Virus record (IMG/VR): IMGVR_UViG_3300031994_000051
Coordinates: 64,001 to 91,291 of that record
Strand: one strand, 5' to 3'
Length of the DNA: 27,291 bases
Origin: a virus
Taxonomy: Duplodnaviria > Heunggongvirae > Uroviricota > Caudoviricetes
The notes under the pieces: generated by a model
Seen by the model: only the letters and a program-made list of their open reading frames with translations
Databases searched by the model: none
What the model was told of the DNA's origin: nothing
In this document: piece by piece, positions 1,332-24,997 of the stretch
Numbering within the stretch: position 1 is the first letter of the stretch
How the letters are laid out: each line of letters opens with the position of its first letter
Program-made: the position numbers and the translations under genes

Positions 1332-1346
1332 GATCCCAATGGGATC
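1332..1346. repeat. 15-bp palindrome, variant (GATCCCAATGGGATC)
   Basis: 7-bp arms, central A. Confidence 0.8.
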
Positions 1347-1434
1347 CCTTTGCCGTGGCATCTCCAAGGTCAGGTTATCCTCACCCATTCCCATCCTGAA
1401 GAACGGATGTTAAAGGGGACTCTGTCCTGAAAAG

Positions 1435-1449
1435 GATCCCACTGGGATC
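1435..1449. repeat. 15-bp palindrome GATCCCACTGGGATC
   Basis: Exact copy between terminator and promoter. Confidence 0.95.
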
Positions 1450-1512
1450 GATTCTGTGCGGATGACATCCGACGGGTTTCTGAACCAGAATAAAATTTTT
1501 TTCGGAAAACAC

Positions 1513-1543
1513 TTGACATGTATTGATATTTTCCGTATCTTTG
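1513..1543 (+). promoter_or_regulatory. Bacteroidota sigma-A-type promoter
   Basis: TTG-N20-TATCTTTG. Confidence 0.85.
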
Positions 1544-1588
1544 CACCGTCAATTCAAAAGAAGTACAAACATATAAGACAAAAGAACT

Positions 1589-1945
1589 ATGGAAGACAAT
1601 CTGACTAAAATTGTGCCATACGGTCCGATCGATTTACACGACAATTTCACGATCAACCACATCAAGATCGAAGTGAAATATTGGGATCACAGGATCAAGG
1701 TCGACATCACACCTATCATGATCAACGATATATCATACAGTGTCCATTACGACGGAAAGCAAGAGCATCAGGGGTTCTTCGTGAACGTACTGCAATGTTC
1801 GAGAAAGTCGAACAAAAAGATGGATCTGATCGCACGCGCACTCTGGCCTTACACCGATCGAATCGTCGAGCTTTTCGGACAAGGGAAGTTCGCAGAAATC
1901 ACCAACATTATCACAGCACTCGTTAAAGACTTAAACCTTAAATAA
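1589..1945 (+). CDS. hypothetical protein (118 aa)
   Basis: ORF directly downstream of promoter. Confidence 0.85.
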   Translation: MEDNLTKIVPYGPIDLHDNFTINHIKIEVKYWDHRIKVDITPIMINDISYSVHYDGKQEHQGFFVNVLQCSRKSNKKMDLIARALWPYTDRIVELFGQGKFAEITNIITALVKDLNLK

Positions 1946-1946
1946 A

Positions 1947-2213
1947 ATGTTAGACATAGAAAGAATAATGGAGAAGATTGGCCCGCAATTGACGATCGGA
2001 GACAAGCGTACCGTCATGATCGTCCTTGATGCAGTCAACGATCAGCTTTCGGAAACGCGCACAAATGAGGATATGTTCTGCATCTATAACAAAAGCGGCA
2101 TGAGAATGTTCCAGTACGGAACAGGATCGTGGTGCCACATGAACAGGACACTGAAGAAAGCCGAGTCCGACTATCCAGACGCAGGGTTCTATGTTGGAGA
2201 AATTGACGGCTAA
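1947..2213 (+). CDS. hypothetical protein (88 aa)
   Basis: Starts 1 nt after upstream stop; followed by terminator. Confidence 0.8.
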   Translation: MLDIERIMEKIGPQLTIGDKRTVMIVLDAVNDQLSETRTNEDMFCIYNKSGMRMFQYGTGSWCHMNRTLKKAESDYPDAGFYVGEIDG

Positions 2214-2240
2214 TCCAAGAAATCGGCAGAACTCCATTCA

Positions 2241-2280
2241 GCGATCGATCACGATAATGTGATCGATCGCTTTTCTTTTT
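2241..2280 (+). terminator. intrinsic terminator
   Basis: Perfect 12-bp stem GCGATCGATCAC/GTGATCGATCGC then TTTTCTTTTT. Confidence 0.9.
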
Positions 2281-2323
2281 GTCAAAAACCTGAGAAAACC
2301 AATGGCGTGCTGGCGTTGGTTAG

Positions 2324-2338
2324 GATCCCACTGGGATC
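2324..2338. repeat. 15-bp palindrome GATCCCACTGGGATC
   Basis: Exact copy. Confidence 0.95.
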
Positions 2339-2439
2339 GATCTGGACGGATCCGTCTTCAAAAGTATCCTTCTGATTTTCAGCAAATTAATTTCCAGAAA
2401 TTTTTTTGAAACTTTTTTGAAAAATTTTCGGAAAAAAGC

Positions 2440-2469
2440 TTGCCAGTTCGGGAATTTTTCGTATCTTTG
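2440..2469 (+). promoter_or_regulatory. Bacteroidota sigma-A-type promoter
   Basis: TTG-N19-TATCTTTG. Confidence 0.8.
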
Positions 2470-2515
2470 CATCGTCAAACAAAGAAAAAGACATTAACCA
2501 ATAAAAGAAAACACT

Positions 2516-3346
2516 ATGGAAAATTACAAGAAAGCATTGGAACAGGTAGGGATCGCCTATTTAGGAGGGTTGAAACACTCGGCAAAGATGATGAAGTCGT
2601 TCAAGAAGAAGGTTGCCACGTATTGCATATACCTTGCGCCTGCCGATCTTGCTGGACGGACTGCAAAGGGTACGCGGATCAACGTATGCCCGAAATCGCA
2701 GCACTGTAAAGCGTTGTGCCTGAACTCGTCTGGCCACAACAAGGCCGACATCCTCCACAGGGGGATCAAGCAATCGACCATCAACCAGTGCAGGATCAGG
2801 AAGACCCGCCTGTTCTACAACGATCGTAACCTGTTCATGGAGATCATGATACACGAGATCGAGAGGAGCCGCAAGTATGCGGAGAGTCACGGAATGGAGT
2901 TCTCGATCCGAATCAACGGAACGAGCGATCTGTCCCCAGAGCTGTTCCGCTACAACGGAAAGAACATACTGGATATGTACCCAGACGTTCAGTTCTACGA
3001 TTATACCAAGGTTTTCAGCCGTACAAAGCTGCAAGGTCTTTATCCAAACTATGACATAACATTCAGCTTCGACGGGTACAACTGGGAAGATTGTGAAACC
3101 TACCTGAACCGTGGCGGGAAGGTGGCGATCGTATTCGACTCGGAAACCATGCCCAAGACCTACAAGGGGTTCAAGGTGATCGACGCAAACGGATATGATA
3201 TGCGCTACATGGATCCTAAGGGTTGCATCATGGGTCTGGAGTTCCATCCGATAGCCATAGGCGGGAAGGTCTGTCACGCCAAGGAAATCGACGATCCCTT
3301 CATCGTGAAAACCGAAAACAACCCAGACGTGGATTTCGGCCTGTAA
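2516..3346 (+). CDS. phage Cys-cluster protein, GP88-like / radical-SAM-like (276 aa)
   Basis: Motifs YLAP, CPKSQHCKALCL (CX5CX3C), RINGTSD, FYDYTK resemble a widespread phage family; ORF certain, family tentative. Confidence 0.6.
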   Translation: MENYKKALEQVGIAYLGGLKHSAKMMKSFKKKVATYCIYLAPADLAGRTAKGTRINVCPKSQHCKALCLNSSGHNKADILHRGIKQSTINQCRIRKTRLFYNDRNLFMEIMIHEIERSRKYAESHGMEFSIRINGTSDLSPELFRYNGKNILDMYPDVQFYDYTKVFSRTKLQGLYPNYDITFSFDGYNWEDCETYLNRGGKVAIVFDSETMPKTYKGFKVIDANGYDMRYMDPKGCIMGLEFHPIAIGGKVCHAKEIDDPFIVKTENNPDVDFGL

Positions 3347-3368
3347 CGGGGGATAAAAACGGAAACGC

Positions 3369-3405
3369 GGGCGATCGGTCACATTGTGATCGGTCGCCCT
3401 TTTTG
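3369..3405 (+). terminator. intrinsic terminator
   Basis: 14-bp stem (with G-U pairs) GGGCGATCGGTCAC/GTGATCGGTCGCCC plus T tract. Confidence 0.85.
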
Positions 3406-3465
3406 TTTTTTCATGGAACTGGATCGATCGGACGAAGGAGATAGCGGATAGCGGAAAGCTGTATG

Positions 3466-3480
3466 GATCCCACTGGGATC
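3466..3480. repeat. 15-bp palindrome GATCCCACTGGGATC
   Basis: Exact copy; extends to 17 bp with flanking G/C. Confidence 0.95.
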
Positions 3481-3576
3481 CTGACTGGACGGATGGAACC
3501 TTTCTCTGGGTTTTCTTCCAGATTTTTCCCGAAAAAAGATCGAGAAAAATTCCAGAAAATTTTTTCAAGAATTTTC

Positions 3577-3607
3577 TTGGATCGTATTGATATTTTTCGT
3601 ATCTTTG
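3577..3607 (+). promoter_or_regulatory. Bacteroidota sigma-A-type promoter
   Basis: TTG-N20-TATCTTTG. Confidence 0.85.
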
Positions 3608-3661
3608 CATCGTCAAATAAAAACAGAGATATTAACCAATAAAAAGAAAGGAAAACAAACC

Positions 3662-3949
3662 ATGGGAAAAAAGATTATCAGAGCAAACGACGCCGACAAC
3701 TGCGAATCGATCATGATTACATTAACACGGGAAAAATACCCGATCGCCTTCAAAGCTAAGTTAGAAGAGCTTATGGAAGAAGGCGCGTTTGAAACGGAAG
3801 ACGAAGCGATCGACTGGATCGAGTCCAACCCGATCGAATTGGAAATCTATTATGAAAAGGGGTATGGCCTTTTCGCCGTGGAATCCGAAGCCGTGGAGAG
3901 CAACGGGACATATTCCCCCTACACAAAATCCGAGATTGTTTGCGATTAA
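3662..3949 (+). CDS. hypothetical acidic protein (95 aa)
   Basis: Start moved to ATG 3662 downstream of promoter. Confidence 0.85.
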   Translation: MGKKIIRANDADNCESIMITLTREKYPIAFKAKLEELMEEGAFETEDEAIDWIESNPIELEIYYEKGYGLFAVESEAVESNGTYSPYTKSEIVCD

Positions 3950-3964
3950 GAAAGGAGAAATGTC

Positions 3965-4360
3965 ATGGGTTACAGATTACATGTGGTAAAACGACAGGAA
4001 CGGTTCGGGGACATCGAGGCGTTCAACTGGAAAAACAACGAGTTCGCGGATCTTCTCACAACGATCGGCTGCGACATCTGCGGTGACGAGCCATACGATC
4101 GATTCGAGTGCCTGAAGTCCGAATTCAGGAAAGCGATCGGCATCGTCAAGCTCTATTCAGAGAAAGACAGTCTGACGGAAGAAGACCTTTCCGCGACAGG
4201 GATCGATCCAGGCTGTTTTGACATCGACGACATCAATGAAATTCTATCAAAAACAAAGGACGAACTTGGGTACACCCCGACAGAGCTTGTCAGGGTCATG
4301 GAGCAGTTCCTTTCGGAATCCGATCCAGATGGTGACTATATCATTTTCGTCGCTTGGTAA
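3965..4360 (+). CDS. hypothetical acidic protein (131 aa)
   Basis: Second ORF of the operon. Confidence 0.85.
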   Translation: MGYRLHVVKRQERFGDIEAFNWKNNEFADLLTTIGCDICGDEPYDRFECLKSEFRKAIGIVKLYSEKDSLTEEDLSATGIDPGCFDIDDINEILSKTKDELGYTPTELVRVMEQFLSESDPDGDYIIFVAW

Positions 4361-4392
4361 AAACGGAAAAAATAACTTAAAACAAGACAATC

Positions 4393-4731
4393 ATGGAAAC
4401 GCAAAGACCTTATACACATGAAGAGTACAAAATCGCCCTTAACGCCACGCACGACTTCCACACAAGATGCTACGAGACCGTAAGGGAATATCTCGAAGGC
4501 CATGGGATGATCAAGATCGATCCAGACCAGTACGATGAATGGAGATTCGATTTCCTTGAATACGATGAAACCATGACAGTGCATGAGATTTGTTTAGACG
4601 ATGACATATATTTTGTGTGCTACACATACAACGGAGATCAATATATTGTCGATTGGTGCCAGATCAACCACGACATGGTAATCACGGAGATGATCATGGA
4701 TCTCGTCTATAAACTTTCGGAAGAAGAATAA
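4393..4731 (+). CDS. hypothetical acidic protein (112 aa)
   Basis: Third ORF, followed by terminator. Confidence 0.85.
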   Translation: METQRPYTHEEYKIALNATHDFHTRCYETVREYLEGHGMIKIDPDQYDEWRFDFLEYDETMTVHEICLDDDIYFVCYTYNGDQYIVDWCQINHDMVITEMIMDLVYKLSEEE

Positions 4732-4760
4732 ACACTTTTGACACGCTTACTTTTCGCTTG

Positions 4761-4800
4761 GGGCGATCGATTACAATCTGGATCGATCGCCCTTCTTTTT
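4761..4800 (+). terminator. intrinsic terminator
   Basis: GGGCGATCGAT/ATCGATCGCCC stem plus TTCTTTTT. Confidence 0.85.
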
Positions 4801-4847
4801 TACCTTGATTTTGGAAATGAACTTCAGCGGGTATCCGCATGGCGATC

Positions 4848-4862
4848 GATCCCAGTGGGATC
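4848..4862. repeat. 15-bp palindrome GATCCCAGTGGGATC
   Basis: Exact copy, opposite orientation of the central base. Confidence 0.95.
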
Positions 4863-4929
4863 TTTTCCCAGAGATTATTTCCCAGAATTTTTCTTGGAAT
4901 TTTTCTTGAAATTTTTTTCGGGATTTTTC

Positions 4930-4960
4930 TTGGATCGTATTGATATTTTTCGTATCTTTG
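4930..4960 (+). promoter_or_regulatory. Bacteroidota sigma-A-type promoter
   Basis: TTG-N20-TATCTTTG. Confidence 0.85.
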
Positions 4961-5007
4961 CAGCGTCAAAACAAAACAGGAATATTAACCATTAAAAAGA
5001 AAAGACT

Positions 5008-5775
5008 ATGCCAAACTATGTTAGAGCAAGAATCACGGTCAGTGGTGACCAGAAGATGATCGATCAGCTTGTCGATCACGTCAAAACCACATTCACAGAA
5101 AACGGGAAGGAAACCGTAATCCCGTTCGATTTCAACAAGATTATCCCTATGCCAGAGTCTTTGGACATCATTGACAGCTCAGACGGGCATAACGGGATGA
5201 AATATCTCCTTCTGAACGGCAAGTCGAGCGTCGGGGTCACAGGGGATGATTTCGCGTTCCTTCAGGAAATGGACAAGATCAGGAAAACAGATCCGAAAAG
5301 GTTCGACGATATGATCGATCTTGGTCGAAAGTACCTGCATAATATCGCGGAACACGGATTTCCGACTTGGTACGGATGGAGAGCCAAGAACTGGGGGACA
5401 AAATGGAATGCGTGTGACACCCAGACGGACGGTAACGGTTGTTTCGAGTTCGACACGGCATGGGCTTTCCCTTTCCCAGTGATCGAGAAGCTTGCCGAAA
5501 TGTATCCAGACCTTGACATCGACTTCATATATGCCGACGAGGACTGCGGATGCAATACGGGGGAAGGGACATTCTCTGGTGGCGAGATCGTCGAAGAGGA
5601 ATACCCAGATCCATGCACTGAAAGCGCATACGAAATCTATGACGAGTGCTGGCAGAATGAGTTCTTCTACAAGGATCCAGACGGGGAATGGAGATGGCAC
5701 GACGACATCAAGGAAGACTCAGACGGCATAGAGGAAAGCACAGACCCGATCAGCGGTGTTCTCGAAACCGAATAG
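5008..5775 (+). CDS. YubB-like / DUF1281_C ferredoxin-like domain protein (255 aa)
   Basis: Characteristic motifs MPNYV, FDFNKIIPMP, WRAKNWGTKWNA, FDTAWAFP, IYADED. Confidence 0.8.
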   Translation: MPNYVRARITVSGDQKMIDQLVDHVKTTFTENGKETVIPFDFNKIIPMPESLDIIDSSDGHNGMKYLLLNGKSSVGVTGDDFAFLQEMDKIRKTDPKRFDDMIDLGRKYLHNIAEHGFPTWYGWRAKNWGTKWNACDTQTDGNGCFEFDTAWAFPFPVIEKLAEMYPDLDIDFIYADEDCGCNTGEGTFSGGEIVEEEYPDPCTESAYEIYDECWQNEFFYKDPDGEWRWHDDIKEDSDGIEESTDPISGVLETE

Positions 5776-5804
5776 CTGAACTGGCCTGACTGCCCAGCAA
5801 GGCA

Positions 5805-5850
5805 AAGGCGATCGATCCTTATAATGTGATCGATCGCCTTTTTTCTTTTT
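5805..5850 (+). terminator. intrinsic terminator
   Basis: 13-bp stem AAGGCGATCGATC/GATCGATCGCCTT plus T tract. Confidence 0.9.
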
Positions 5851-5897
5851 TGTTCATAAGACGCTTGCATGATGATATGATGCGGGGGCCTTCGATC

Positions 5898-5912
5898 GAT
5901 CCCACTGGGATC
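5898..5912. repeat. 15-bp palindrome GATCCCACTGGGATC
   Basis: Exact copy. Confidence 0.95.
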
Positions 5913-5990
5913 CTTTCCACTGGAAAACTTTTGGGTTTTATTCTGGAATTTCTTTCAATAAATATCAAAGAAATTTTTATGGATTTTTTC

Positions 5991-6021
5991 TTGGATGTTT
6001 CTCGGAAAATCCGTATCTTTG
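5991..6021 (+). promoter_or_regulatory. Bacteroidota sigma-A-type promoter
   Basis: TTG-N20-TATCTTTG. Confidence 0.8.
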
Positions 6022-6042
6022 CAAAATCAAAAAAGTTACATT

Positions 6043-6576: not shown

Positions 6577-6591
6577 GATCCCACTTGGATC
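6577..6591. repeat. 15-bp palindrome, variant (GATCCCACTTGGATC)
   Basis: One mismatch; same position upstream of promoter. Confidence 0.8.
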
Positions 6592-8596: not shown

Positions 8597-8611
8597 GATC
8601 CCACTGGGATC
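8597..8611. repeat. 15-bp palindrome GATCCCACTGGGATC
   Basis: Exact copy. Confidence 0.95.
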
Positions 8612-10134: not shown

Positions 10135-10149
10135 GATCCCACTGGGATC
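10135..10149. repeat. 15-bp palindrome GATCCCACTGGGATC
   Basis: Exact copy. Confidence 0.95.
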
Positions 10150-11080: not shown

Positions 11081-11433
11081 CACAAGAAGAATTATTCGAC
11101 AAAGTTTTCAGCTGTATCCACGGGTGTATAGACGGAACATATCTTCATTGCAATATAAAGGATGGAGTATGTAGATGTGATCATTGTGAATACTTTAAGA
11201 CAGAACTAAGGGAAGCATACGATCAGGTTCTGGACGCATCGAACAGACTCAGTGCCGCCCAGCAGAAGCTTGGAAGGATAGCGAGTGATCTGATAGGGGT
11301 TGAAGTCGTGGCCGACATCTGCGGTGGAGACGAGATAGAGTTTCGATCGATCCACGACGATGGGACAGACGATAACGACTGCATAAGAATTGAACAAATA
11401 GAACAACTTGCAAAAGAAAGAGGTACACTATGA
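11077..11433 (+). CDS. hypothetical protein (118 aa, Cys-rich N-half)
   Basis: ATGA overlap with upstream stop; CxxC-like pairs. Confidence 0.78.
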   Translation: MTQEELFDKVFSCIHGCIDGTYLHCNIKDGVCRCDHCEYFKTELREAYDQVLDASNRLSAAQQKLGRIASDLIGVEVVADICGGDEIEFRSIHDDGTDDNDCIRIEQIEQLAKERGTL

Positions 11434-11627
11434 AAGTATTCAACGAAAGGGAGATCAAGCGGATCCTCAAGGACAACGGCTACTCCGTGAAAAGAAGCAA
11501 CGGAACTTCCCATGAGATATGGGAGAACAAGGAGACTGGCGACAAGCTTTCCCTGAACGCCAAGCACATCAATAGGATGGTGTGGCAGCGTCTGGTGAAG
11601 GAACACAACATCAGGTGCCAGTTCTGA
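11430..11627 (+). CDS. hicA: HicA-family toxin-like protein (65 aa)
   Basis: EIKRILKDNGYSVKRSNGTSHEIW matches the HicA pattern (helix, G-x-x-H, W); size fits; no HicB adjacent. Confidence 0.7.
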   Translation: MKVFNEREIKRILKDNGYSVKRSNGTSHEIWENKETGDKLSLNAKHINRMVWQRLVKEHNIRCQF

Positions 11628-13431: not shown

Positions 13432-13446
13432 GATCCCAGTGGGATC
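13432..13446. repeat. 15-bp palindrome GATCCCAGTGGGATC
   Basis: Exact copy 13 nt past the stop of the 346-aa gene. Confidence 0.95.
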
Positions 13447-13459: not shown

Positions 13460-14500
13460 TCACTTGTGTTCGATGCAGATCGGGTTGTCGATCGGCCTCC
13501 CTTTCCTGTCGAGATCGATCATGTCTGGACTTATTCTTGAGAACCAGTATCTTCTCGGCTTGTAGTCCATGAGGTTCTTACCCCTTTCCTTGAGGCTGTT
13601 GTAGCTTTTCTCCCCGTTCCTTGACATCGATCGTATCAGGAACCTGTTCACCCCGTCCCTGTGGTATCCTTCGATAACTATGCCTCCATAGGCCATGTAA
13701 GCCCTGAAGTCGTCCATTCCCCTTATGCACTTGATGAACGCCTTCTTTATCGCGCTGTTCCTGTACCCCTTGAACCCTGACGGGAACGTGATCATGTCCT
13801 CTCCCTCGAAGAACATTGGCTTTATGGGTTTCCTTCCGTCCCAGAACTCGATCGATCCAGTCATGAAGCAAGGCCGTATGTCCTTGCAGAACGTGAGCCT
13901 GTCGAAGAACCCGTCTATAGCCTGCGCCCTGTGCGTGTTTATCCACAGTATCCATGACTCGGATTTCTTGCTCTCTGGCTTCTGGTGCTGCCTCATGCGC
14001 TCTATGCTGTACTGCTTGAACGTGAAGCCACAATCCGATCGGGTGTCTATCAGTGGAGTGTATGACAGTTTGGGGACGATCACCTTCTGCTTCGGGCTGT
14101 ACTGCGCACCGCAGACGAGAAGATGCTTGTCGTTGAGAAGCCTGTTGAAGTCTGGTATGTCTGGCTTCTTCCTCCTGTCGCGTTTCTTGTACTTGCGCTT
14201 CGCTTGTTTTTCGGCAAGTTTTTCCGCGAGTTTCTTCAGCCGTAGCCTTTCCTTGCGTTTGGCCTCGTATTCCGCACCCCTGCGTCTCCTGCGCTTCGGG
14301 CCTGGCCTGTGTTTCCTTTTGACCTTCCTGCGATCGATCTTGTGGCCGTGCCTGTCGTATGTTATGCCAAGCCCTTCCTTAGGCTCGTCAGCCTTATGTT
14401 CGACGCGCATCCACTTTGTCGGCCTGTTCTCCTTGGATGCGTTTTTGTTGCCCTTCTGTGATGTCTGGGTCTTTTTCTTCGTTTTCTTGCTTTCTTCCAT
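13460..14500 (-). CDS. very basic hypothetical protein (346 aa), K/R-rich N-terminus, possibly nucleic-acid binding
   Basis: Start moved to MEESKK (14500); RRKVKRKHRPGPKRRRRR tract then a ~220-aa globular-looking region; no family recognised. Confidence 0.8.
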   Translation of the reverse strand: MEESKKTKKKTQTSQKGNKNASKENRPTKWMRVEHKADEPKEGLGITYDRHGHKIDRRKVKRKHRPGPKRRRRRGAEYEAKRKERLRLKKLAEKLAEKQAKRKYKKRDRRKKPDIPDFNRLLNDKHLLVCGAQYSPKQKVIVPKLSYTPLIDTRSDCGFTFKQYSIERMRQHQKPESKKSESWILWINTHRAQAIDGFFDRLTFCKDIRPCFMTGSIEFWDGRKPIKPMFFEGEDMITFPSGFKGYRNSAIKKAFIKCIRGMDDFRAYMAYGGIVIEGYHRDGVNRFLIRSMSRNGEKSYNSLKERGKNLMDYKPRRYWFSRISPDMIDLDRKGRPIDNPICIEHK

Positions 14501-14582
14501 ACTGTATCTATCTATGTTTCCAAAAGGATCGATCCTTGTGAACACAGGATATATAAATCGAAAAACATAACCAAACAAAGAA

Positions 14583-14801: not shown

Positions 14802-14816
14802 GATCCCACTGGGATC
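14802..14816. repeat. 15-bp palindrome GATCCCACTGGGATC
   Basis: Exact copy; first of a tandem pair 48 bp apart. Confidence 0.95.
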
Positions 14817-14849: not shown

Positions 14850-14864
14850 GATCCCACTGGGATC
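14850..14864. repeat. 15-bp palindrome GATCCCACTGGGATC
   Basis: Exact copy; second of the tandem pair. Confidence 0.95.
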
Positions 14865-14925
14865 GATCGTTTTGCGCGGAATGACAGAATGTCATGTCAG
14901 GTACTAACAAAATGTCAGTTTTGTC

Positions 14926-14956
14926 TTGGATCGTGTCGGATTTTTTCGTATCTTTG
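14926..14956 (+). promoter_or_regulatory. Bacteroidota sigma-A-type promoter with no convincing ORF downstream
   Basis: TTG-N20-TATCTTTG. Confidence 0.8.
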
Positions 14957-14959: not shown

Positions 14960-15270
14960 CACGAAACATGACAAAAAGGCAGATCCGATCTTTCCCCTTT
15001 CCTGACAGGATGTCAGTGAAGGTTCTTGATCGGATCTGTCGAAAAATGAATCGTGACTGTTTGTGTGTTTAATTGAAACACCATGTGGTTCCCGTCTCGG
15101 TTTATCCACAACATCAAGAATGCATGTTTTGTGTCCCCAAATTCGTAAAAATTGCGAATACCAGAGAAAATTTTTAACAAATAATGAAAGATCTCTGGTG
15201 ACAATCATATGCAATTAATCTCATCGCATATGATTTGGATCGATCGGAATTATGGTGATCGATCCTGTTT
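14960..15270 (+). ncRNA. candidate hairpin-rich non-coding transcript (or cruciform-rich DNA element)
   Basis: Own promoter; stems CAGATCCGATC/GATCGGATCTG, ACCAGAGA/TCTCTGGT, AATCATATGC/GCATATGATT, GGATCGATC/GATCGATCC. Confidence 0.45.
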
Positions 15271-15893: not shown

Positions 15894-16184
15894 TCATTTC
15901 CTGTTGATATTCCATCCGAGTTTCAGGATCAGTTTCAGCGTCTCCATGGCGGTGGATCGATCGTATTCCTTTTCGGTTTCTGGGAGATCCTGATACGGTA
16001 CGAGACAAGGATGTTTCTTGAGGGAGTCGTCTCTTGATGGTCCGTATGTCCATCCTTGATCGATCCTTTGTTTTGCCCAGATGTCGTGGACGTTTTCTGC
16101 GATTCTTTCTCTGAGTTCTTCCAGTTCTTCAGGAAGGTTGATGTCCGACGTGTTGATCGGATTCGGTTTGTAGGTGTTTTTCAT
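15894..16184 (-). CDS. stand-alone RyR (ryanodine receptor repeat) domain protein (96 aa)
   Basis: AENVHDIWAKQRIDQGWTYGPSRDDSLKKHPCLVPYQDLPETEKEYDR is the classic RyR-domain signature. Confidence 0.92.
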   Translation of the reverse strand: MKNTYKPNPINTSDINLPEELEELRERIAENVHDIWAKQRIDQGWTYGPSRDDSLKKHPCLVPYQDLPETEKEYDRSTAMETLKLILKLGWNINRK

Positions 16185-16240
16185 TTTCTCTTTTTTATTT
16201 GTGTATAAACACATTGTTGTTATGTATTTGAATTACGGTG

Positions 16241-18617: not shown

Positions 18618-18641
18618 GATTCAAATATTTTAATTACGTTG

Positions 18642-18763: not shown

Positions 18764-20008
18764 TCAAAGGTTCAGTTTGAACACTTTTGGTGATACAACG
18801 TCACCTCTATCCCGTAAGCACATTAGCTGTGCATCCGAGATTACATTCCCTTTTCTCATCATTCCTATGGAACCGTTTATGTCGGCGTTAAGAATCTTTC
18901 CTGTGGATGAAACGAACAATCCTCTCTTTGTCCTCTTTCCCATGTACTTTTCATGGTGTTTCATATCTTCCAGAACTATATGGTCAACCTTGCTTGTGTA
19001 TGATTCCTCGACCGTTTCAACAACCAAGTCCGTGTATTTCAGAGCCTTGTACTTGATCTGCTCAATCAACGTGTTGAAAGGGATCTGCACGAAGTTCTGG
19101 TTGTTCCTTCTTCCGATGTTCACTTCCTGTTTCCATCCTTTGTTATGGCCTATAATGATCTTCTCCACACCGTTCCTGACACAGAAATCAACCAGTTGTT
19201 TTGACGCACAATGCAGGTAATGGTTTACCTTTGCGTTTCTTTTCTTCGTCAATCTCTGAATCCTCTTGCTTGTGTGTTTGTTGTTGCATTTTTCGAGTTC
19301 AGACTTGTACTCCACGAGTCTCTTGTTATAGAACTGGTTCATGGACTTCAGTGGTCTACCGTTAACGACGTATGAAAAGGGTTTGTCGTTTGAAGTTATA
19401 GCACACAAGTTATTTACACCTAAATCAATTCCTATGCAAGAATTTGAGTCATAGTTGTTCCTTATTACTTCCCTGTCTTCATATATGATGTTTATCTTTA
19501 TTTTGTCATAGTATTTCTGTATTGTGACTTGTCTAACATCTTTCAACTTTATCTGTCTTGGTACGAATATCTTGTAGCCAGAACAAGGTATTGTGAAAGA
19601 GTTTGTTTCTGGATCCTTCTTTCTGAACCTGCTTGAATCGATGTATATGATGTTATATTCCTTTGTCTTGTAAAGATAGTTCGGCATCTTCGGCCTGCCA
19701 TTGAACTTGGAAGGATTTTGTTTATATGATTGTGTCGCCTTGATCCATGACAGCCAGTTCTTTGCAACCTGTCTTACGACATATTGCTTGATGTTTATGT
19801 CAAGCTTTGATTCGGCAACCTTGCTTTCTGTCTTGACCTTCTCCCAGAGCTGGTTGTATGAATAAGTCTTTATCTTCCCTTGTTCCTTTGTCTCGAAATA
19901 CGCCTGCCTCTGGAAGTACAGGGCCTGATCATATATGGAAAGCGAATCAGACATCATACCAAGAAGCCTGATGTCGTTCCTTACCACTATGTTCCAAGAC
20001 CTGAGCAT
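18764..20008 (-). CDS. tnpB: RNA-guided endonuclease TnpB (IS200/IS605/IS607 family), no TnpA in window (414 aa)
   Basis: RuvC-I GIDLGVNNL; IIIGHNKGWKQ at the RuvC-II position; VEESYTSK; RuvC-III NADINGS. Confidence 0.93.
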   Translation of the reverse strand: MLRSWNIVVRNDIRLLGMMSDSLSIYDQALYFQRQAYFETKEQGKIKTYSYNQLWEKVKTESKVAESKLDINIKQYVVRQVAKNWLSWIKATQSYKQNPSKFNGRPKMPNYLYKTKEYNIIYIDSSRFRKKDPETNSFTIPCSGYKIFVPRQIKLKDVRQVTIQKYYDKIKINIIYEDREVIRNNYDSNSCIGIDLGVNNLCAITSNDKPFSYVVNGRPLKSMNQFYNKRLVEYKSELEKCNNKHTSKRIQRLTKKRNAKVNHYLHCASKQLVDFCVRNGVEKIIIGHNKGWKQEVNIGRRNNQNFVQIPFNTLIEQIKYKALKYTDLVVETVEESYTSKVDHIVLEDMKHHEKYMGKRTKRGLFVSSTGKILNADINGSIGMMRKGNVISDAQLMCLRDRGDVVSPKVFKLNL

Positions 20009-20045: not shown

Positions 20046-20345
20046 TTATTTATCTGTTAGTTTAGAGAGAATTTTTATATGGTTTATTATGTTACTTACA
20101 TTCTCACCAACACCGAACACCTTAGCAATATAGTCACTTAGTTCTGAGAAGAATCTTTCTTTGCGGTTTTCGATTGCCATCCTGTTTTCTTCTATACTTT
20201 TACCTTCTTTATAAGACTGTTCATATGGCAGTCTTATGTCAGAAAGTTTCTCAAGTTTACTCAATTTTGTCTGGAATGTAAATTTATTGAATGTAGTAAA
20301 TCTATCAATAAATCTATATTGTTTTCCGTATATTCTAATATTCAT
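20046..20345 (-). CDS. hypothetical protein (99 aa)
   Basis: AT-rich, GATC-free ORF in operon context. Confidence 0.75.
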   Translation of the reverse strand: MNIRIYGKQYRFIDRFTTFNKFTFQTKLSKLEKLSDIRLPYEQSYKEGKSIEENRMAIENRKERFFSELSDYIAKVFGVGENVSNIINHIKILSKLTDK

Positions 20346-20368
20346 GTTGTATAAGTTTTAGTTGATTT

Positions 20369-20848
20369 TTAAAACGTGTCAAGGTATTTCTGTAGCAATT
20401 TCCTTCTTTTCTCTGTCTTCGACTCTGGGGTTTCTGGAACGATATACATCATCCTTGCGGCGATCTCCCCTTTCCCGTCCTCGTAGTATCTGATCCCTTC
20501 AGGTATGATACACATGACCACCCTAGCATATGCTGGGCCGATCGATTTTTTCACTGATTGGTCTCTCGCGATTTCGTTCCATACTCGCATTGTGTCTTCG
20601 GAAGGCTTTTCCGTGAAAGCATGGATGAACCCCCTTCCTACATATAGAGTTCCGTGCCTGAAAGAAAGTTCCGTTTCCCCAAGTCCGATCAGTGGAACAT
20701 CCCCGCTAAGTTGGATTGGCCTGACACGATCTTTTATCACTGGTGTGTAGTGGAACCCAGCACTGTTCACGAACAGAATTTTCCACACTATTCTTTCACC
20801 CTTTGTGTATCTCGGCTCGGTAAAGCTACCTGTTGCGTATAAGCACAT
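20369..20848 (-). CDS. hypothetical phage protein (159 aa)
   Basis: Start moved to MCLYATG; GFIHAF and CIIPEGIRYY motifs. Confidence 0.82.
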   Translation of the reverse strand: MCLYATGSFTEPRYTKGERIVWKILFVNSAGFHYTPVIKDRVRPIQLSGDVPLIGLGETELSFRHGTLYVGRGFIHAFTEKPSEDTMRVWNEIARDQSVKKSIGPAYARVVMCIIPEGIRYYEDGKGEIAARMMYIVPETPESKTEKRRKLLQKYLDTF

Positions 20849-20883
20849 TTTATTTCTTGTTTTTGTTGTTCGATTTAATCCTT

Positions 20884-21183
20884 CTAACAAATATACTCTC
20901 CAGCATGGTTTCCTGACTTGAACACATGTGTCTGTGAAAGTTCCCTTGCAATTCCCTGTGCAACCCTATAGTCAACGATCGAGGGACAAAGCATGATATT
21001 GCTATGTTCTTTTATATACGTTTCGGCATCATTGTATGTGTCAAAACATAAGGCACGATCGATGTCATAAGTGAACTTCCTGTCTTGATAATCTGATCTG
21101 AAACAGACACTGCCACTTGGACAATGACAATCTATAATGAGATATTTCTTGTAAACTCTTTCTTGATCAAAAAAATTCTTCAT
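20884..21183 (-). CDS. hypothetical protein (99 aa)
   Basis: Start moved to ATG 21183 downstream of promoter. Confidence 0.8.
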   Translation of the reverse strand: MKNFFDQERVYKKYLIIDCHCPSGSVCFRSDYQDRKFTYDIDRALCFDTYNDAETYIKEHSNIMLCPSIVDYRVAQGIARELSQTHVFKSGNHAGEYIC

Positions 21184-21208
21184 TTCTATTTGTTTTTGAA
21201 ATTCGCTG

Positions 21209-21239
21209 CAAAGATACGGAAAATTTCTGGAATGTGCAA
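21209..21239 (-). promoter_or_regulatory. Bacteroidota sigma-A-type promoter
   Basis: TTG-N20-TATCTTTG on - strand. Confidence 0.85.
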
Positions 21240-21274
21240 GAAAAATCCGAATTATTTTTCTTTGTCTGGATAAA

Positions 21275-21314
21275 CAAAAAAACCGATCGATCCTTTTGTG
21301 AACGGATCGATCGG
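21275..21314 (-). terminator. intrinsic terminator of the tRNA transcript
   Basis: 11-bp stem CCGATCGATCC/GGATCGATCGG then T7 on - strand. Confidence 0.85.
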
Positions 21315-21354
21315 AAAACAAAACTAACCTATGGAATAAAACCCCTTGATTATG

Positions 21355-21425
21355 AGCGACTTATGAGACTCGAACTCACCTTTTCAGAGTGGAAATCTGA
21401 TGTCCTGCCACTGGACGAAAGTCGC
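21355..21425 (-). tRNA. tRNA-Gly (anticodon TCC), CCA not encoded
   Basis: Full cloverleaf: acceptor GCGACTT/AAGTCGC, D GTCC/GGAC, anticodon TCAGA-TTTCCAC-TCTGA, T arm GTGAG-TTCGAGT-CTCAT; Gly identity G1-C2-G3 and U73. Confidence 0.93.
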
Positions 21426-21429
21426 GTCT

Positions 21430-21525
21430 TTGTCAAACCAGCGGATCCGCTGCGGCGTGCCAGCCGTGGAAGGAGGTGTGCGGAACGGCTGGCGGGCCGA
21501 TTGCGTCTTCACCGCTGCTTGACAA
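21430..21525 (-). ncRNA. candidate ~96-nt hairpin RNA co-transcribed upstream of tRNA-Gly
   Basis: Ends pair (TTGTCAA/TTGACAA plus CAGCGG/CCGCTG); perfect inner 9-bp stem GCCAGCCGT/ACGGCTGGC with a 17-nt C-rich loop. Confidence 0.6.
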
Positions 21526-21527
21526 TG

Positions 21528-21558
21528 CAAATATACGGAAACTATCCGAAACTGGAAA
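21528..21558 (-). promoter_or_regulatory. variant promoter (TTTCCAG-N10-TTTCCGTATATTTG) driving hairpin RNA and tRNA
   Basis: TATATTTG at 21528-21535; same layout as 15734-15764. Confidence 0.78.
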
Positions 21559-21608
21559 GAGTTTTTGGAAAAATTTTTCTTGATGATGATAATTGTTTTG
21601 TGTTAGAA

Positions 21609-21623
21609 GATCCCAGTGGGATC
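21609..21623. repeat. 15-bp palindrome GATCCCAGTGGGATC
   Basis: Exact copy ~50 nt upstream of the - strand tRNA promoter. Confidence 0.95.
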
Positions 21624-21671
21624 TTTTTGTCACGCCACGCTATGAATATATTTTGTTTTGTGTTGGCTGAA

Positions 21672-21705
21672 ATAGAAAAGGGATCGATCAAAAATGATCG
21701 ATCCC
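21672..21705 (-). terminator. intrinsic terminator
   Basis: GGGATCGATCA/TGATCGATCCC stem, TTTTCT on - strand. Confidence 0.8.
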
Positions 21706-21728
21706 CCATTGTTTGTTAATTATGAATT

Positions 21729-21968
21729 TTATTCTTTGGATGTTTTTGAACTTGACTTAAACAGACATGTTCCTATGATATCCAGAACAAACATTATTCC
21801 TAATGCCTTCCATGTTGTTAGGACAGGTGCAGATGACCAGAAGATCGGTGCGATCCAGTTCCAGAGAAGAGATGCAACCCATCCTTCCAGTATTAGTAGT
21901 CCAGCGATAAGAGCGATTACAACGATGCATCCGATTGCAGACCAGTCGCGTCTAAATAATTCATTCAT
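21729..21968 (-). CDS. small membrane protein (79 aa)
   Basis: Two hydrophobic segments. Confidence 0.8.
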   Translation of the reverse strand: MNELFRRDWSAIGCIVVIALIAGLLILEGWVASLLWNWIAPIFWSSAPVLTTWKALGIMFVLDIIGTCLFKSSSKTSKE

Positions 21969-22201
21969 TTTTGTTTATTTTTATTGTTTATGATTAGGTT
22001 TATTCCATATGTTATAAAACCGATTGCCAACAGATATGGCAAAGGTTTCAATGGATCGATCTGTTTTATGTCTTGGCTAAACAAATATAATGTTGTTTGT
22101 AATAACACGATACATCCATTAGTTATCAGACATACCATGATTACAGCGAACAGATCTAGCGCATATTCTATCCATGATTTCTTAGTTTCTTTTCCACCCA
22201 T
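21965..22201 (-). CDS. small membrane protein (78 aa)
   Basis: Two hydrophobic segments; ATGA overlap. Confidence 0.75.
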   Translation of the reverse strand: MGGKETKKSWIEYALDLFAVIMVCLITNGCIVLLQTTLYLFSQDIKQIDPLKPLPYLLAIGFITYGINLIINNKNKQK

Positions 22202-22640
22202 CTCTCTGTTCCTCCTGTTTTGGCTGTTGAATTGATTTGATATTCTTGAAATGTTCTGCGTTAATCTGATTGATCTTAATCTTCAGGAACTCATCCCATG
22301 CCGTTTCTGGTTGTGGATCGATCGAAAGCAGTCTGCCTCTCCCAGTCTTCACGAGCCAGACAATCATCTCAACAAGGTTCTGCATAGGATCTGGTCCGTT
22401 GAATATAGGGCTGACGCCTTTGTACCATATCCTGTCGCCAGCGAATTGGGATGGCCTGTTGAAGTTGTCTGGTATTGAGTCTGGAAGCATTTTGGATAAC
22501 GCGAGTCCAGACCATGCTATACCGAATGAGTTCTCCGTGTCCGCAGATGAAGCTGGTATGTTCCATTCCTGCAGCATGCGTGCCTGTCTAGGTGTCGTGC
22601 GCATAGCTTTCAGCTTGTTTTCTGTCGTTTGGTCTGCCAT
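22182..22640 (-). CDS. hypothetical protein (152 aa)
   Basis: First ORF after promoter. Confidence 0.8.
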   Translation of the reverse strand: MADQTTENKLKAMRTTPRQARMLQEWNIPASSADTENSFGIAWSGLALSKMLPDSIPDNFNRPSQFAGDRIWYKGVSPIFNGPDPMQNLVEMIVWLVKTGRGRLLSIDPQPETAWDEFLKIKINQINAEHFKNIKSIQQPKQEEQRDGWKRN

Positions 22641-22665
22641 TTTATGTTGTTTTTGAATTTCGCGG

Positions 22666-22696
22666 CAAAGATACGTAAACTTTTTGGATTATGCAA
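22666..22696 (-). promoter_or_regulatory. Bacteroidota sigma-A-type promoter
   Basis: TTG-N20-TATCTTTG on - strand. Confidence 0.82.
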
Positions 22697-22945
22697 GTAA
22701 AATCAGAAAAATGTTTCCATAGTGATTTATCTGTGGATTATTTTCTGAAAGAAGCCGAAAACGTGGCCGTACAGACGTTTTTATGTTCTGGACGATTAAT
22801 GTATCTGGTTTTTTACGGAAAACATCTCTATGGTCACGTTTTGTGTTTTGATGGATTGAATACTCCTGAAATTTTTCGGGGGACGATCCTCACCAGCTTC
22901 CTTGGATTGTCGGATCGCCCCCTTCCGTCTGCACAACGGTATGGC

Positions 22946-23089
22946 TTATCGTTTGTATCGATCGATCCTGTGGAGTTTCCTTCTGATTTTGATGTCTTCG
23001 TTTCTGCGAGACAGTGCATTCATCCTTTCCTTAGTTGCTGTGAACATCATCGGATAAAGTGAGCAGTAGTCATTATTAATTTCATTCAT
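22946..23089 (-). CDS. small basic hypothetical protein (47 aa, MNEINNDYCSLYPMMF...)
   Basis: Translated by hand; starts 17 nt after upstream stop. Confidence 0.45.
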   Translation of the reverse strand: MNEINNDYCSLYPMMFTATKERMNALSRRNEDIKIRRKLHRIDRYKR

Positions 23090-23106
23090 GTCTTGATGTT
23101 TTATTG

Positions 23107-23496
23107 TTAAACATAGCATTCGATCATCTTGTTTAGTTCGTCTGACATGCCAAGGATTCTTTCCAAGTGTGTCTTGATCATGTTTGATCGTTCCAATCTT
23201 TTATTTTCTGGATCGACGGACAAAATGTATGAATCAGAATCATTCCATTCTATTCTGTCAATCAGATCATCGAAATCTTTTCTTCTTTCTGATGGGAACA
23301 TCACTCCATATGTGATTATTTTATCTAGGGTGATTTCAGTATCAGGTTTTGCCCTACAGTAAGAGAGTAAGACGTCTTTGTCTTGTGCCATTTCTAGGAC
23401 GGCTTTAACCGTGTTAACGAAATATGGTTGGAACCAGTAGACGTCGTATTGGCCTTTGTCGAACGGCTCTGGAATGATATTGTTATCTTCGTTCAT
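23107..23496 (-). CDS. hypothetical protein (129 aa)
   Basis: Operon packing. Confidence 0.82.
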   Translation of the reverse strand: MNEDNNIIPEPFDKGQYDVYWFQPYFVNTVKAVLEMAQDKDVLLSYCRAKPDTEITLDKIITYGVMFPSERRKDFDDLIDRIEWNDSDSYILSVDPENKRLERSNMIKTHLERILGMSDELNKMIECYV

Positions 23497-23513
23497 TTAA
23501 TGTTCATTTAATT

Positions 23514-23768
23514 TTATTTTTCCACGAATTTGTCTATGTTGTCTAGAGTAAGTTCCTTGTTGTCGTTGATGAAATATTCGACAGCATCTCTTGAAATCTT
23601 TTGAAACTGTTCCCAGTTAAGCCATTCAAGTTTGAATGTTGGCCACCCTTGTTGTTCATATCTCATCAAACCAATGTCATCGATAGGTTTCCACGTAGTC
23701 TCGTTAAGGTAGGCGAGACAAAGATACCAAAGGTGATCTGAAACAATTTTGTCGTTAATAGCTTTCAT
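23514..23768 (-). CDS. hypothetical protein (84 aa)
   Basis: Start moved to ATG 23768. Confidence 0.8.
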   Translation of the reverse strand: MKAINDKIVSDHLWYLCLAYLNETTWKPIDDIGLMRYEQQGWPTFKLEWLNWEQFQKISRDAVEYFINDNKELTLDNIDKFVEK

Positions 23769-23770
23769 TT

Positions 23771-23911
23771 TTACCAACCTTGATTAATTTGTGATATTGA
23801 TTCTAATCTATCTTTTATTCGTTTGATCATGTCGATCATTTCCTATTCTGTGTGAACCGACTCAAGGAAAACATTGAGTTCATCGACGATCCATTTTATT
23901 CTTGTTTGCAT
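23771..23911 (-). pseudogene. 46-codon ORF interrupted by an in-frame TAG at codon 23 (pseudogene or readthrough)
   Basis: MQTRIKWIVDELNVFLESVHTE*EMIDMIKRIKDRLESISQINQGW; fills the gap between neighbours. Confidence 0.45.
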
Positions 23912-24075
23912 CTTTTCTTATCCAAGTTTATGTTCCAGTAAAGGTCTGCCTGCAAAAGCTTTTGCCCTATTCTCAATAGAACGTCTGCTGCATTTTTCTG
24001 TGGTACTCCGTTTTCTATCAGGATTTTCTCTGCTTCGATAACGGACTCATCTTTAATGTTTGCGAAAATAGCCAT
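23896..24075 (-). CDS. hypothetical protein (59 aa)
   Basis: Start moved to ATG 24075 downstream of promoter. Confidence 0.75.
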   Translation of the reverse strand: MAIFANIKDESVIEAEKILIENGVPQKNAADVLLRIGQKLLQADLYWNINLDKKRCKQE

Positions 24076-24099
24076 ATATGATAGTTTGTTTTTTCGATG

Positions 24100-24130
24100 C
24101 AAAGATACGGAAAAGTTTTTGATTGTACAA
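24100..24130 (-). promoter_or_regulatory. Bacteroidota sigma-A-type promoter
   Basis: TTG-N20-TATCTTTG on - strand. Confidence 0.85.
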
Positions 24131-24139
24131 GAAAAATCT

Positions 24140-24199
24140 TTATTTTTTCGTTTCTGCTGCCATAGTCTCTACGATTCTGTATTTCTTTGATAAGTCCAT
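24140..24199 (-). CDS. micro-ORF (19 aa, MDLSKKYRIVETMAAETKK)
   Basis: Small ORF with a typical leader between two promoters. Confidence 0.45.
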   Translation of the reverse strand: MDLSKKYRIVETMAAETKK

Positions 24200-24227
24200 A
24201 GTTTATATGTTTTGATGTTTAACGCTG

Positions 24228-24257
24228 CAAAGATACGAAAAAATCTGGAATCGGCAA
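24228..24257 (-). promoter_or_regulatory. Bacteroidota sigma-A-type promoter
   Basis: TTG-N19-TATCTTTG on - strand. Confidence 0.8.
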
Positions 24258-24311
24258 GTATTTTTTCCAGATTTTTTCAAAAATATAATAACATATTGAA
24301 ATACAATAAGT

Positions 24312-24917
24312 TCAAAAGTTCAGATCAAATCGTTCATTCACTTTTTCTATCATTTCTTCTGTCAATGTTATTCCTTTTAATTTCACTCTGCAAGGTGGAA
24401 GTCTAGCGAACATAGGATCGTCGGTGAAAATGTGCTTTATATTTCTGGCTCCATATTTTCGAAGAACGGCCTCTACTGTTTTCTCGCCTCCCCTGTCTGC
24501 GGCTACTGCCATAACCTTTCCTATAACAAGAAAAATATAGATTGATCTCTTTTTTGTAGTTCCCTCGTTTACGGAAAACGACGAAGAGTCAGACACTGGG
24601 GTTATATCCCATCCAAGAGCGTTCAACCTAGCAGCCTCCTTCATGAAAACCTTACCGTGTTCGGAGTTGTCCTTGAGTCTGAACTGATCTATCTTCTGAT
24701 GTATCATCTCATGAAGCATTGTCTGGCGATACGATCGATCGTCCCTGTCATAGACATCGGTTATTCGTATCTCGTTTCCGTCTATATTTCTGAAATACAG
24801 CCCCAAAGCGTCCATTGTGTGGACTACTTTGAATTTTGGTGTGTCCAGTTGTCCGTCGAAATATTGTTCGTTCAGTTCCCTGAACATTTCAGACATTTGT
24901 GATTCAGTTATTTTCAT
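24312..24917 (-). CDS. SprT-like zinc metalloprotease (201 aa)
   Basis: FRELNEQYFDGQL...TMLHEMIHQ...HGKVFMKEAARLN: HExxH plus downstream H, typical SprT layout. Confidence 0.88.
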   Translation of the reverse strand: MKITESQMSEMFRELNEQYFDGQLDTPKFKVVHTMDALGLYFRNIDGNEIRITDVYDRDDRSYRQTMLHEMIHQKIDQFRLKDNSEHGKVFMKEAARLNALGWDITPVSDSSSFSVNEGTTKKRSIYIFLVIGKVMAVAADRGGEKTVEAVLRKYGARNIKHIFTDDPMFARLPPCRVKLKGITLTEEMIEKVNERFDLNF

Positions 24918-24921
24918 GATG

Positions 24922-24953
24922 CAAATATACGGAATATTTTTGTAAATCGACAA
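24922..24953 (-). promoter_or_regulatory. sigma-A-type promoter 4 nt from the SprT start codon
   Basis: TTG-N21-TATATTTG-CATC-ATG. Confidence 0.72.
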
Positions 24954-24982
24954 AAGTTTGCATTTTGTTCTATATTAGGTTG

Positions 24983-24997
24983 GATCTCACTGGGATC
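24983..24997. repeat. 15-bp palindrome, variant (GATCTCACTGGGATC)
   Basis: One mismatch; between terminator and promoter on the - arm. Confidence 0.8.

Follow-up and report, generated by a model that had tools for sequence, protein, structure and literature searches.

In this report, we focus on a 27,291-nucleotide stretch of phage DNA (hereafter the window) and on a 15-bp palindrome, GATCCCASTGGGATC, that recurs between its genes. The final 27 kb of a 91,291-bp IMG/VR virus record make up the window, and this record is an incomplete genome (G0, also G000) that comes from a large uncultured phage with a Bacteroidota-type host. A reading made from the letters alone (the sequence-only reading) had counted 11 exact copies of the palindrome and three single-base variants in the window, all of them intergenic, and had proposed that they bind a dimeric phage protein or form the core of a site-specific recombination system, possibly gated by methylation. 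The counts hold: 11 exact copies and 3 near matches are present, against a shuffle expectation of 0.00 and 0.05, respectively, and 14 of 14 fall between the open reading frames (ORFs), which were called by a codon-usage score trained on the long ORFs of the whole record. The feature is real, and it is conserved.

The palindrome and its gene cassettes

The intergenic regions that hold the palindrome repeat a single order, which is stop codon, terminator, palindrome(s), A/T-rich tract, promoter and ATG. A strong intrinsic terminator, the stem of which is rich in GATCGATC, lies about 40 nt past the stop codon. The first palindrome is found 106-148 nt past the same codon, and in 18 of 21 cases in G0 it lies 74-88 bp from the centre of the terminator hairpin. 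An A/T-rich tract of ttttccagaaaattt-like repeats then leads from the palindrome(s) to the promoter, which is of the Bacteroidota type, the consensus of which is TTG, about 20 nt, then TAnnTTTG (the -7 box), and the ATG follows about 45 nt further. The last palindrome mostly stands 83-135 bp before the -7 box, and most often about 91-105 bp, a distance similar to that from one site to the next. Each cassette boundary holds 1 to 8 sites: many spacers hold 2-4, there are up to 8 in a relative, G002, and most cassettes of the window hold a single site, about 1 kb from the next one. The copies of the window, and the gene of a basic protein, are the following:

1332-1346, no strand: copy with centre A (one mismatch), first of a pair spaced by 103 bp
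1435-1449, no strand: exact copy, -7 box 94 bp downstream of the copy centre
2324-2338, no strand: exact copy, upstream stop codon 111 nt before it, -7 box at +131
3466-3480, no strand: exact copy, -7 box at +127
4848-4862, no strand: exact copy with centre G, 78.5 bp past the centre of the terminator hairpin, -7 box at +98
5898-5912, no strand: exact copy, 82.5 bp past the terminator centre, -7 box at +109
6577-6591, no strand: one-mismatch variant, T for G at inner position 10 with both outer arms (GATCC/GGATC) kept, -7 box at +100
8597-8611, no strand: exact copy, 77 bp past the terminator centre, -7 box at +165
10135-10149, no strand: exact copy, -7 box at +118
13432-13446: exact copy at convergent gene ends, 113 nt past the plus-strand gene and 14 nt past the stop of the basic-protein gene, no promoter nearby
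13460-14545, minus strand: gene of a 361-aa protein with a basic tail (346 aa from the second ATG), no family or fold match
14802-14816: exact copy, 48 bp from the one at 14850, in the divergent region that precedes both the basic-protein gene and a plus-strand promoter at 14949
14850-14864, no strand: exact copy, -7 box at +92
21609-21623: exact copy on the minus-strand arm, 81 bp from a minus-strand -7 box, upstream of a unit of hairpin RNA and tRNA-Gly
24983-24997: one-mismatch variant, C5 to T, minus-strand -7 box 61 bp off, upstream of a SprT-like gene

A TAnnTTTG box in the correct orientation lies 61-165 bp downstream of 10 of these copies, and the second-row copies at 1332 and 14802 have theirs at 197 and 140 bp, respectively. 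The earlier claim that the copies are promoter-proximal is thus right for most of the window, but it fails at 13432, which is a promoterless convergent junction. Sites at such junctions also occur at genome positions 50830 and 50939, and another site, at genome 55807, lies between divergent promoters. At the scale of the record, a palindrome is found no more than 260 bp upstream of 28 of the 32 -7 boxes at 44-79 kb, but upstream of none of the 10 at 79-91 kb or of the 3 at 0-44 kb. Promoters of this type therefore exist without the palindrome, which means that it is not part of the promoter and that it marks one set of cassettes. Lying between an upstream terminator and a downstream promoter, the sites are predicted to be in DNA that is probably not transcribed.

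Shape, spacing and conservation of the site

The distribution over the whole record, which the sequence-only reading had named as a check, is clearly not random. If the centre is left free and one arm mismatch is allowed, 61 copies are found, 60 of them between 44.4 and 89 kb, and the pattern GATCC-N5-GGATC alone has 67 copies in the 91-kb record (0 expected), 66 of which lie beyond 44 kb (44-91 kb). Nearly all these copies are non-coding, though about 60% of the 44-80-kb region is coding. The invariant part of the site is indeed GATCC-N5-GGATC, that is, two outer 5-bp arms with their centres 10 bp apart. The inner CA.TG is preferred without being obligatory, and a change in it is never compensated on the opposite arm. 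Such uncompensated inner variation, together with invariant outer arms, fits base-specific contacts rather than pairing. Outside the 15-mer, the information content reaches only to +/-10 bp (roughly atgGATCC...GGATCcat), so that the functional unit is a palindrome of about 21 bp; in the search of flanks and spacers for motifs, nothing was conserved beyond +/-10 bp, and a GGAC at +12-16 was found in a few copies only. Most copies create a GGATCC, which is observed 101 times for 13 expected. As for the centre base, the sequence-only reading had seen a C on the sense strand, and this bias is found within the window; genome-wide, however, it dissolves into a regional pattern and is not a strand rule, since A or T stands at the centre of 35 of the 41 sites between 44 and 55.7 kb, and C at that of 14 of the 22 between 55.75 and 77.4 kb. 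Such a distribution is suggestive of local copying rather than of polarity.

The spacing of neighboring sites is exact to the base pair. Among the 37 neighbor distances of 80-130 bp (G0 and G002 pooled), 9 are exactly 103 bp, 7 are exactly 93 bp and 3 are 112 bp, and the 93- and 103-bp modes are both present in each phage. These 93/103-bp counts were reached in 0 of 100,000 trials, under a uniform as under a normal null; this exact-value test was used in place of a Rayleigh test of helical period, which is uninformative over such a narrow range of spacings. The spacers themselves, 78 or 88 bp long without the palindrome, are unrelated in sequence (28% ungapped identity, 25% in a shifted control), with the exception of an inverted duplicate of a two-site unit (51716-51840 and 49829-49706, 77% identity). 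They are rich in G+C, with 49.5% in G0 and 54% in G002 for 44% in the region, and a search for a 10-bp A/T periodicity and for a second motif in them found neither. Lengths that are exact to the base pair without conservation of sequence, in steps of a helical turn, point to a constraint by which bound proteins stay on a single face of the DNA, and such a constraint would be the best account of the exact spacing.

We then consider conservation. No match to the window was obtained when 50,697 GenBank phages were searched with megablast, IMG/VR scans for the exact motif gave chance copies only (1-2 per contig) and no further multi-copy contig, and a scan of GTDB genomes gave one chance match, in a Pirellula metagenome-assembled genome. 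A loose double-pattern scan of metagenomes also returned mostly chance matches, contigs L220 and L304 being the only true relatives among the matches listed. A conserved 635-aa structural protein led to five related phage records, and GATCC-N5-GGATC is found in 0 of 5. Homologues of a 315-aa protein of the window were also tried as a guide to relatives and rejected, as they led only to unrelated temperate phages without the motif. The expectation that the motif be conserved in relatives is nonetheless borne out. The exact G0 word is kept in Logan contigs L189-L191, in which a neighboring protein is only 58-60% identical, and it is found at the same places in the JGI contigs L220 and L304, which are about 82-90% identical to G0. 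In L220 (about 90% identical), two palindromes 94 bp apart stand where G0 has one, which makes a clean one-unit indel bounded by the palindrome.

The most informative relative is G002, a 164-kb record with 73% identity in the 635-aa structural protein, which has a palindrome of its own, AATTCCAWTGGAATT, in 26 copies that are all in its last 6.5 kb, the remaining 157 kb being free of it. Compared with the G0 word, 11 of the 15 positions are the same, and the changes are limited to positions 1 and 4 and their mirror positions, 15 and 12, respectively. The array region is syntenic in both phages: the rows begin a few kb downstream of a homologous 141-aa gene, directly at a block of short direct repeats that share ACTTCCGAATA (157.5-157.74 kb in G002). 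G002 also keeps the plan of terminator, sites, A/T-rich tract and promoter, with 76-85.5 bp from terminator to site and spacings that are again 93 and 103 bp. In G001, G003, G004 and G005, no over-represented palindrome was found, and since G004 (364 kb, 94% complete) is without it, the system is confined to one sub-lineage. The anatomy of the site, its statistics and its conservation can be taken as established.

Several other observations were made on the same DNA. The cassette genes have almost no Pfam or PHROG matches; five of them match a family, the other ORFs tested being orphans, and these five stand below with two further features of the window:

15894-16214, minus strand: RyR-domain gene (E 3e-40)
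24312-24917, minus strand: SprT-like gene
2516-3346, plus strand: GP88 gene
5008-5775, plus strand: DUF1281_C gene
11430-11627, plus strand: weak HicA-like gene
21354-21425, minus strand: tRNA-Gly (TCC), downstream of a minus-strand promoter with a palindrome 81 bp upstream of its -7 box
18764-20008, minus strand: TnpB (IS605 OrfB) gene, Pfam E 7e-21

The tRNA-Gly is the only hit of an Rfam search of the window. The TnpB gene is 78.5% identical to a differently placed copy in G002, and since this is more than the best structural protein (73%), it has probably been exchanged or recently mobile, judging from these identities. A second type of palindrome, TGACA-N3-TGTCA, is found at 14882-14894 and 15003-15015 of the window, 121 bp apart and flanking the plus-strand promoter at 14949, with two further copies at genome 46119 and 48587. 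The sole copy of the 15-bp palindrome outside the array, at genome 12893 (L005:12893-12907), falls within the first 30 or so codons called for an Amidase_3 (endolysin-like) gene; because that N-terminal stretch is unaligned in the G002 homologue, the copy may lie just upstream of the real gene start. At genome 44.29-44.56 kb (L007:4290-4560), the palindrome that opens the array is flanked by two blocks of short direct repeats, with about 4 copies of cacttccgaata and about 9 of a 12-bp ttccgtttaca unit, and these blocks are a possible origin or partition site. The composition of G000 is also unusual: CCGG is observed 0 times for 147 expected, CTAG is at 0.12 of expectation, and GATC is over-represented 2.86-fold and GATCGATC about 100-fold, chiefly in the terminator stems of the 44-80-kb region. 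The relative G001 is likewise without CCGG, and the GATC excess is found neither in G001 nor in G002, so that it is lineage-specific. The region is also carried by a 173-kb ENA contig, in ERZ27256871. Finally, two unrelated Bacteroidota-type IMG/VR contigs, L087 and L107, share the TTCGTATCTTTGCA promoter word and carry dispersed palindromes of their own, the 15-bp CTTATAC-N-GTATAAG (4 copies, one pair 102 bp apart) and the 17-bp CAGCGAT-N3-ATCGCTG (5 copies); palindromes specific to one phage at cassette boundaries may thus be common.

Weighing the possible functions

We favor, with a probability of about 0.5, the reading in which the palindrome is an operator for a dimeric DNA-binding protein that would bind cooperatively on one helical face and would control or insulate the cassettes at 44-79 kb. 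The palindrome would be the core of a two-fold symmetric docking site of 19-21 bp for a sequence-specific dimer, itself probably encoded by the phage, and 1-8 such docking sites would mark each boundary between the self-contained cassettes of this accessory region. As the sites are kept integral helical turns apart (93, 103 or about 112 bp), the bound dimers would face the same side of the DNA, where they could contact each other through cooperative binding, small loops or wrapping. The likely outcome would be the joint control or the insulation of the cassette set, for instance by timed shut-off, by activation or by the blocking of read-through. That a protein binds these sites, and what its binding does, we infer from the presence of two invariant 5-bp half-sites one helical turn apart, from the lack of compensatory variation, from the weak hairpin, from the predicted untranscribed position, from the exact 93/103-bp phasing and from the mirrored arm changes of G002.

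The sequence-only reading had proposed a dimeric protein that regulates early genes; for symmetry, phasing and mirrored changes, this is the best fit, but no binder has been found. Pfam and PHROG scans of about 70 ORFs revealed no clear helix-turn-helix, ParB or other regulator, and this counts against the operator reading, as do three further points. The promoterless sites (13432; genome 50830/50939) mean that promoter control alone is insufficient, the sites stand about 95-145 bp upstream of the transcription start, which is far for a simple repressor, and the mirrored arm changes are equally predicted by a hairpin model. One weak MerR-like match was rejected, as it is below the cut-off and the gene is also present in a relative without palindromes.

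The 361-aa basic protein had been suggested as a candidate binder, and it is retained as a weak one because palindromes bracket its gene in all four genomes examined, namely G0 and all three relatives carrying the gene; on the other side, it has no family or fold match. In the three relatives, the sites lie 28-55 nt before its start codon, and a canonical promoter is not visible. The protein has a very basic N-terminal tail, rich in lysine and arginine, and its full-length AlphaFold2 (AF2) model is poor (pLDDT 48). The C-terminal part of about 180 aa is, however, modelled with a pLDDT of 91.5, and it belongs to a widespread family of stand-alone proteins of about 170 aa (142 cluster representatives), which is without a Pfam model. 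This domain model had no match in the PDB (best Foldseek E 0.04, best VIA Z 4.4), and the ESM Atlas gave nothing informative.

The sites could instead serve as anchors for structure, replication or partition, which would order the accessory region into a regular array of nucleoprotein units, each about 10 helical turns long, like a centromere or an origin/enhancer, in the manner of the baculovirus homologous regions (hrs). Such a role would explain why sites are found at every type of boundary, including promoterless convergent ends, and it sits well with exact 93/103-bp spacing despite unrelated spacer sequences, with the G+C-rich spacers (49.5% and 54%, for 44%), with an array that starts at direct repeats sharing ACTTCCGAATA in both G0 and G002, and with a distance from site to -7 box that resembles the distance from site to site. 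We still hold it for unlikely, since most window cassettes have a single site, about 1 kb from the next, the spacers lack the 10-bp A/T periodicity often seen in wrapped DNA, and no ParB-family gene was found in the 91-kb fragment (no match to ParB_N, PF02195; the genome is incomplete). A bolder and somewhat less likely extension would make the palindromes the anchors of a nucleoprotein lattice, a kind of phage 'chromatin' repeating about every ten helical turns, which would tile all the intergenic regions of the accessory array. The anchors would then set the position of the terminator (about 80 bp before the first of them) and that of the promoter (about 100 bp after the last), and, if this were true, the 35-kb cassette region would be switched, insulated or compacted as one unit. 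In the literature searched, no sequence-anchored, helically quantised array has been described in a bacteriophage.

Recombination is the other function that the sequence-only reading had put forward, and here the sites would be hot spots for the gain, loss or inversion of cassettes and of spacer units, either through a dedicated enzyme or simply through the homologous recombination of the phage. The one-unit 94-bp indel of L220 is bounded by the palindrome, a two-site unit is inverted (51716-51840 against 49829-49706), and several blocks of inter-cassette homology begin at the palindrome. The indel in this close relative indicates that the repeats are prone to rearrangement, but a repeat of 15-25 bp yields such indels as a side effect whatever its function. 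Most of the inter-cassette homology sits in the promoter modules and not at the palindrome, and exact helical phasing and gene-free arrays of up to eight sites are left unexplained. Moreover, tyrosine (Phage_integrase) and serine recombinases were sought in the 91-kb fragment without a match, as was the Y1 (RAYT) transposase PF01797, which is weak evidence in an incomplete genome. The idea of a recombination core does not survive well in this light, and we consider this role improbable. The suggestion of methylation gating fares no better: the homologous site of G002 has AATT in place of GATC, so that gating is not a conserved requirement and is unlikely to be essential, and Dam and N6/N4 methyltransferases were sought in the fragment with no match, which is again weak evidence given the incomplete genome. 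Two named types of array were considered and rejected. An integron attC/cassette array does not fit, as each cassette has its own promoter and no Phage_integrase is present in the (incomplete) fragment. CRISPR arrays have repeats of 23-47 bp and unique spacers in one uninterrupted array beside a leader; here, the conserved part is 15-21 bp, the rows are broken by genes and the spacers are 78 or 88 bp.

The palindrome could also act as a nucleic-acid hairpin, whether as a single-strand promoter of the N4 type for a phage RNA polymerase, as a back-up terminator or as an RNA processing site. It can form a 6-bp stem with a 3-nt loop, like the hairpins that are the early promoters of phage N4, the arm changes of G002 preserve complementarity, and a T run follows 2 of the 3 G-centred copies of the window. 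However, the single-stranded fold of the element is weak (-4.6 kcal/mol, z of about -1), which is no better than shuffles, changes in the inner stem are uncompensated and the outer arms show no compensated variety within a genome. An N4-type promoter, which has a conserved hairpin with a defined loop and, about 11 nt downstream, a conserved start region, was rejected as the three centre bases vary and as nothing is conserved beyond +/-10 bp, which leaves no start-site motif; gene-free rows of up to eight sites would, besides, make no sense as promoters. As a terminator, the hairpin would be weak, usually without a T run, and it would stand 74-88 bp after a strong intrinsic terminator and before a promoter. 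We thus find a hairpin function very improbable. Lower still do we place a selfish repeat, similar to repetitive extragenic palindromic (REP) elements or to miniature inverted-repeat transposable elements (MITEs), or a decoy aimed at a protein or a nuclease of the host; in either case, the palindrome would play no organised part in the phage. Dispersed short intergenic palindromes just downstream of genes do recall bacterial REP elements, a TnpB (IS605 OrfB) gene lies within the window, and most copies create a GGATCC (101 for 13 expected). Against this, the positions are conserved between relatives, exact phasing and fixed terminator distances imply selection on placement, TnpB is 78.5% identical in G002, the palindrome of which differs, and no Y1/RAYT transposase was found in the fragment, the genome being incomplete.

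If the operator reading is right, it bears on a broader question. Large phages carry long arrays of small genes of unknown function that are switched on by the host polymerase, and how such blocks are controlled is little known, especially in Bacteroidota. One docking word at every boundary, with base-pair-exact spacing in two diverged phages, points to a dedicated protein-DNA system, and the natural variant pair GATCCCANTGGGATC / AATTCCAWTGGAATT offers a ready-made comparison of specificity. The binding protein, if found, would make early-gene control in the jumbo phages of rumen and gut easier to approach, and it would supply Bacteroidota genetics with an operator-regulator pair that is portable.

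Comparison with known systems

Baculovirus hrs are rows of 2-8 regularly spaced intergenic palindromes which are bound by IE-1 dimers and work as enhancers and possibly as origins. The likeness lies in regularly spaced rows of palindromes between the genes of a large DNA virus; unlike in these insect viruses, where the whole repeat unit is conserved, only the palindrome is conserved here, and an IE-1-like protein, for which no search was made, did not come up. The looping repressors LacI and GalR have paired operators spaced by about 92 and 113 bp, and these are also two-fold symmetric, stand about 9-11 helical turns apart and depend on helical phase for their function. They belong to single regulons and number 2-3, which overlap or flank one promoter, whereas the phage has about 67 sites over 45 kb, none of which overlaps a core promoter.

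Among phages, the PeSL cassettes of T4-type phages are alike in that each small ORFan gene comes with a terminator and with a strong host-type promoter of its own, upstream of which lies an A/T-rich tract; the stem-loop is the terminator, and the repeated junctions favor shuffling (PMC2839356). The same architecture is found here, with repeated promoter and terminator modules that flank small ORFan genes. The test of the palindrome as a PeSL-type terminator failed, however, since the role of terminator falls to a distinct hairpin rich in GATCGATC, while the palindrome, present in 1-8 copies with exact phasing, comes 74-88 bp later as a third element that folds weakly. The stoperators of cluster A mycobacteriophages are likewise many copies of a phage-specific site spread over the genome, through which one phage protein, the L5-type immunity repressor, controls transcription genome-wide; they are asymmetric, are bound by a monomer and halt elongation (PMC9283540). 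The present site is, in contrast, two-fold symmetric to +/-10 bp, stands after terminators and in phased rows, and has no genome-wide strand bias of its centre base.

The OB sites of the IncP plasmid RK2 number about 12; their 13-bp sequence is not that of the phage site, and they are not known to form 93/103-bp rows. As in the phage, OB is a short perfect palindrome with an unpaired centre base, scattered over a mobile genome, upstream of many promoters and at distances that vary, and a single global regulator, KorB, acts at a distance and cooperatively through these dispersed operators (PMC11790492). Dispersed palindromes at promoters, as in the KorB-OB and ParB-parS type, are what we find in the phage, with 67 copies and 28 of 32 promoters at 44-79 kb. 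KorB is a CTPase clamp of the ParB family, and no ParB N-terminal domain was found in the 91-kb phage fragment. By analogy, then, the phage site would work like the dispersed operators of a global regulator, while being a member of none of the systems to which we compared it.

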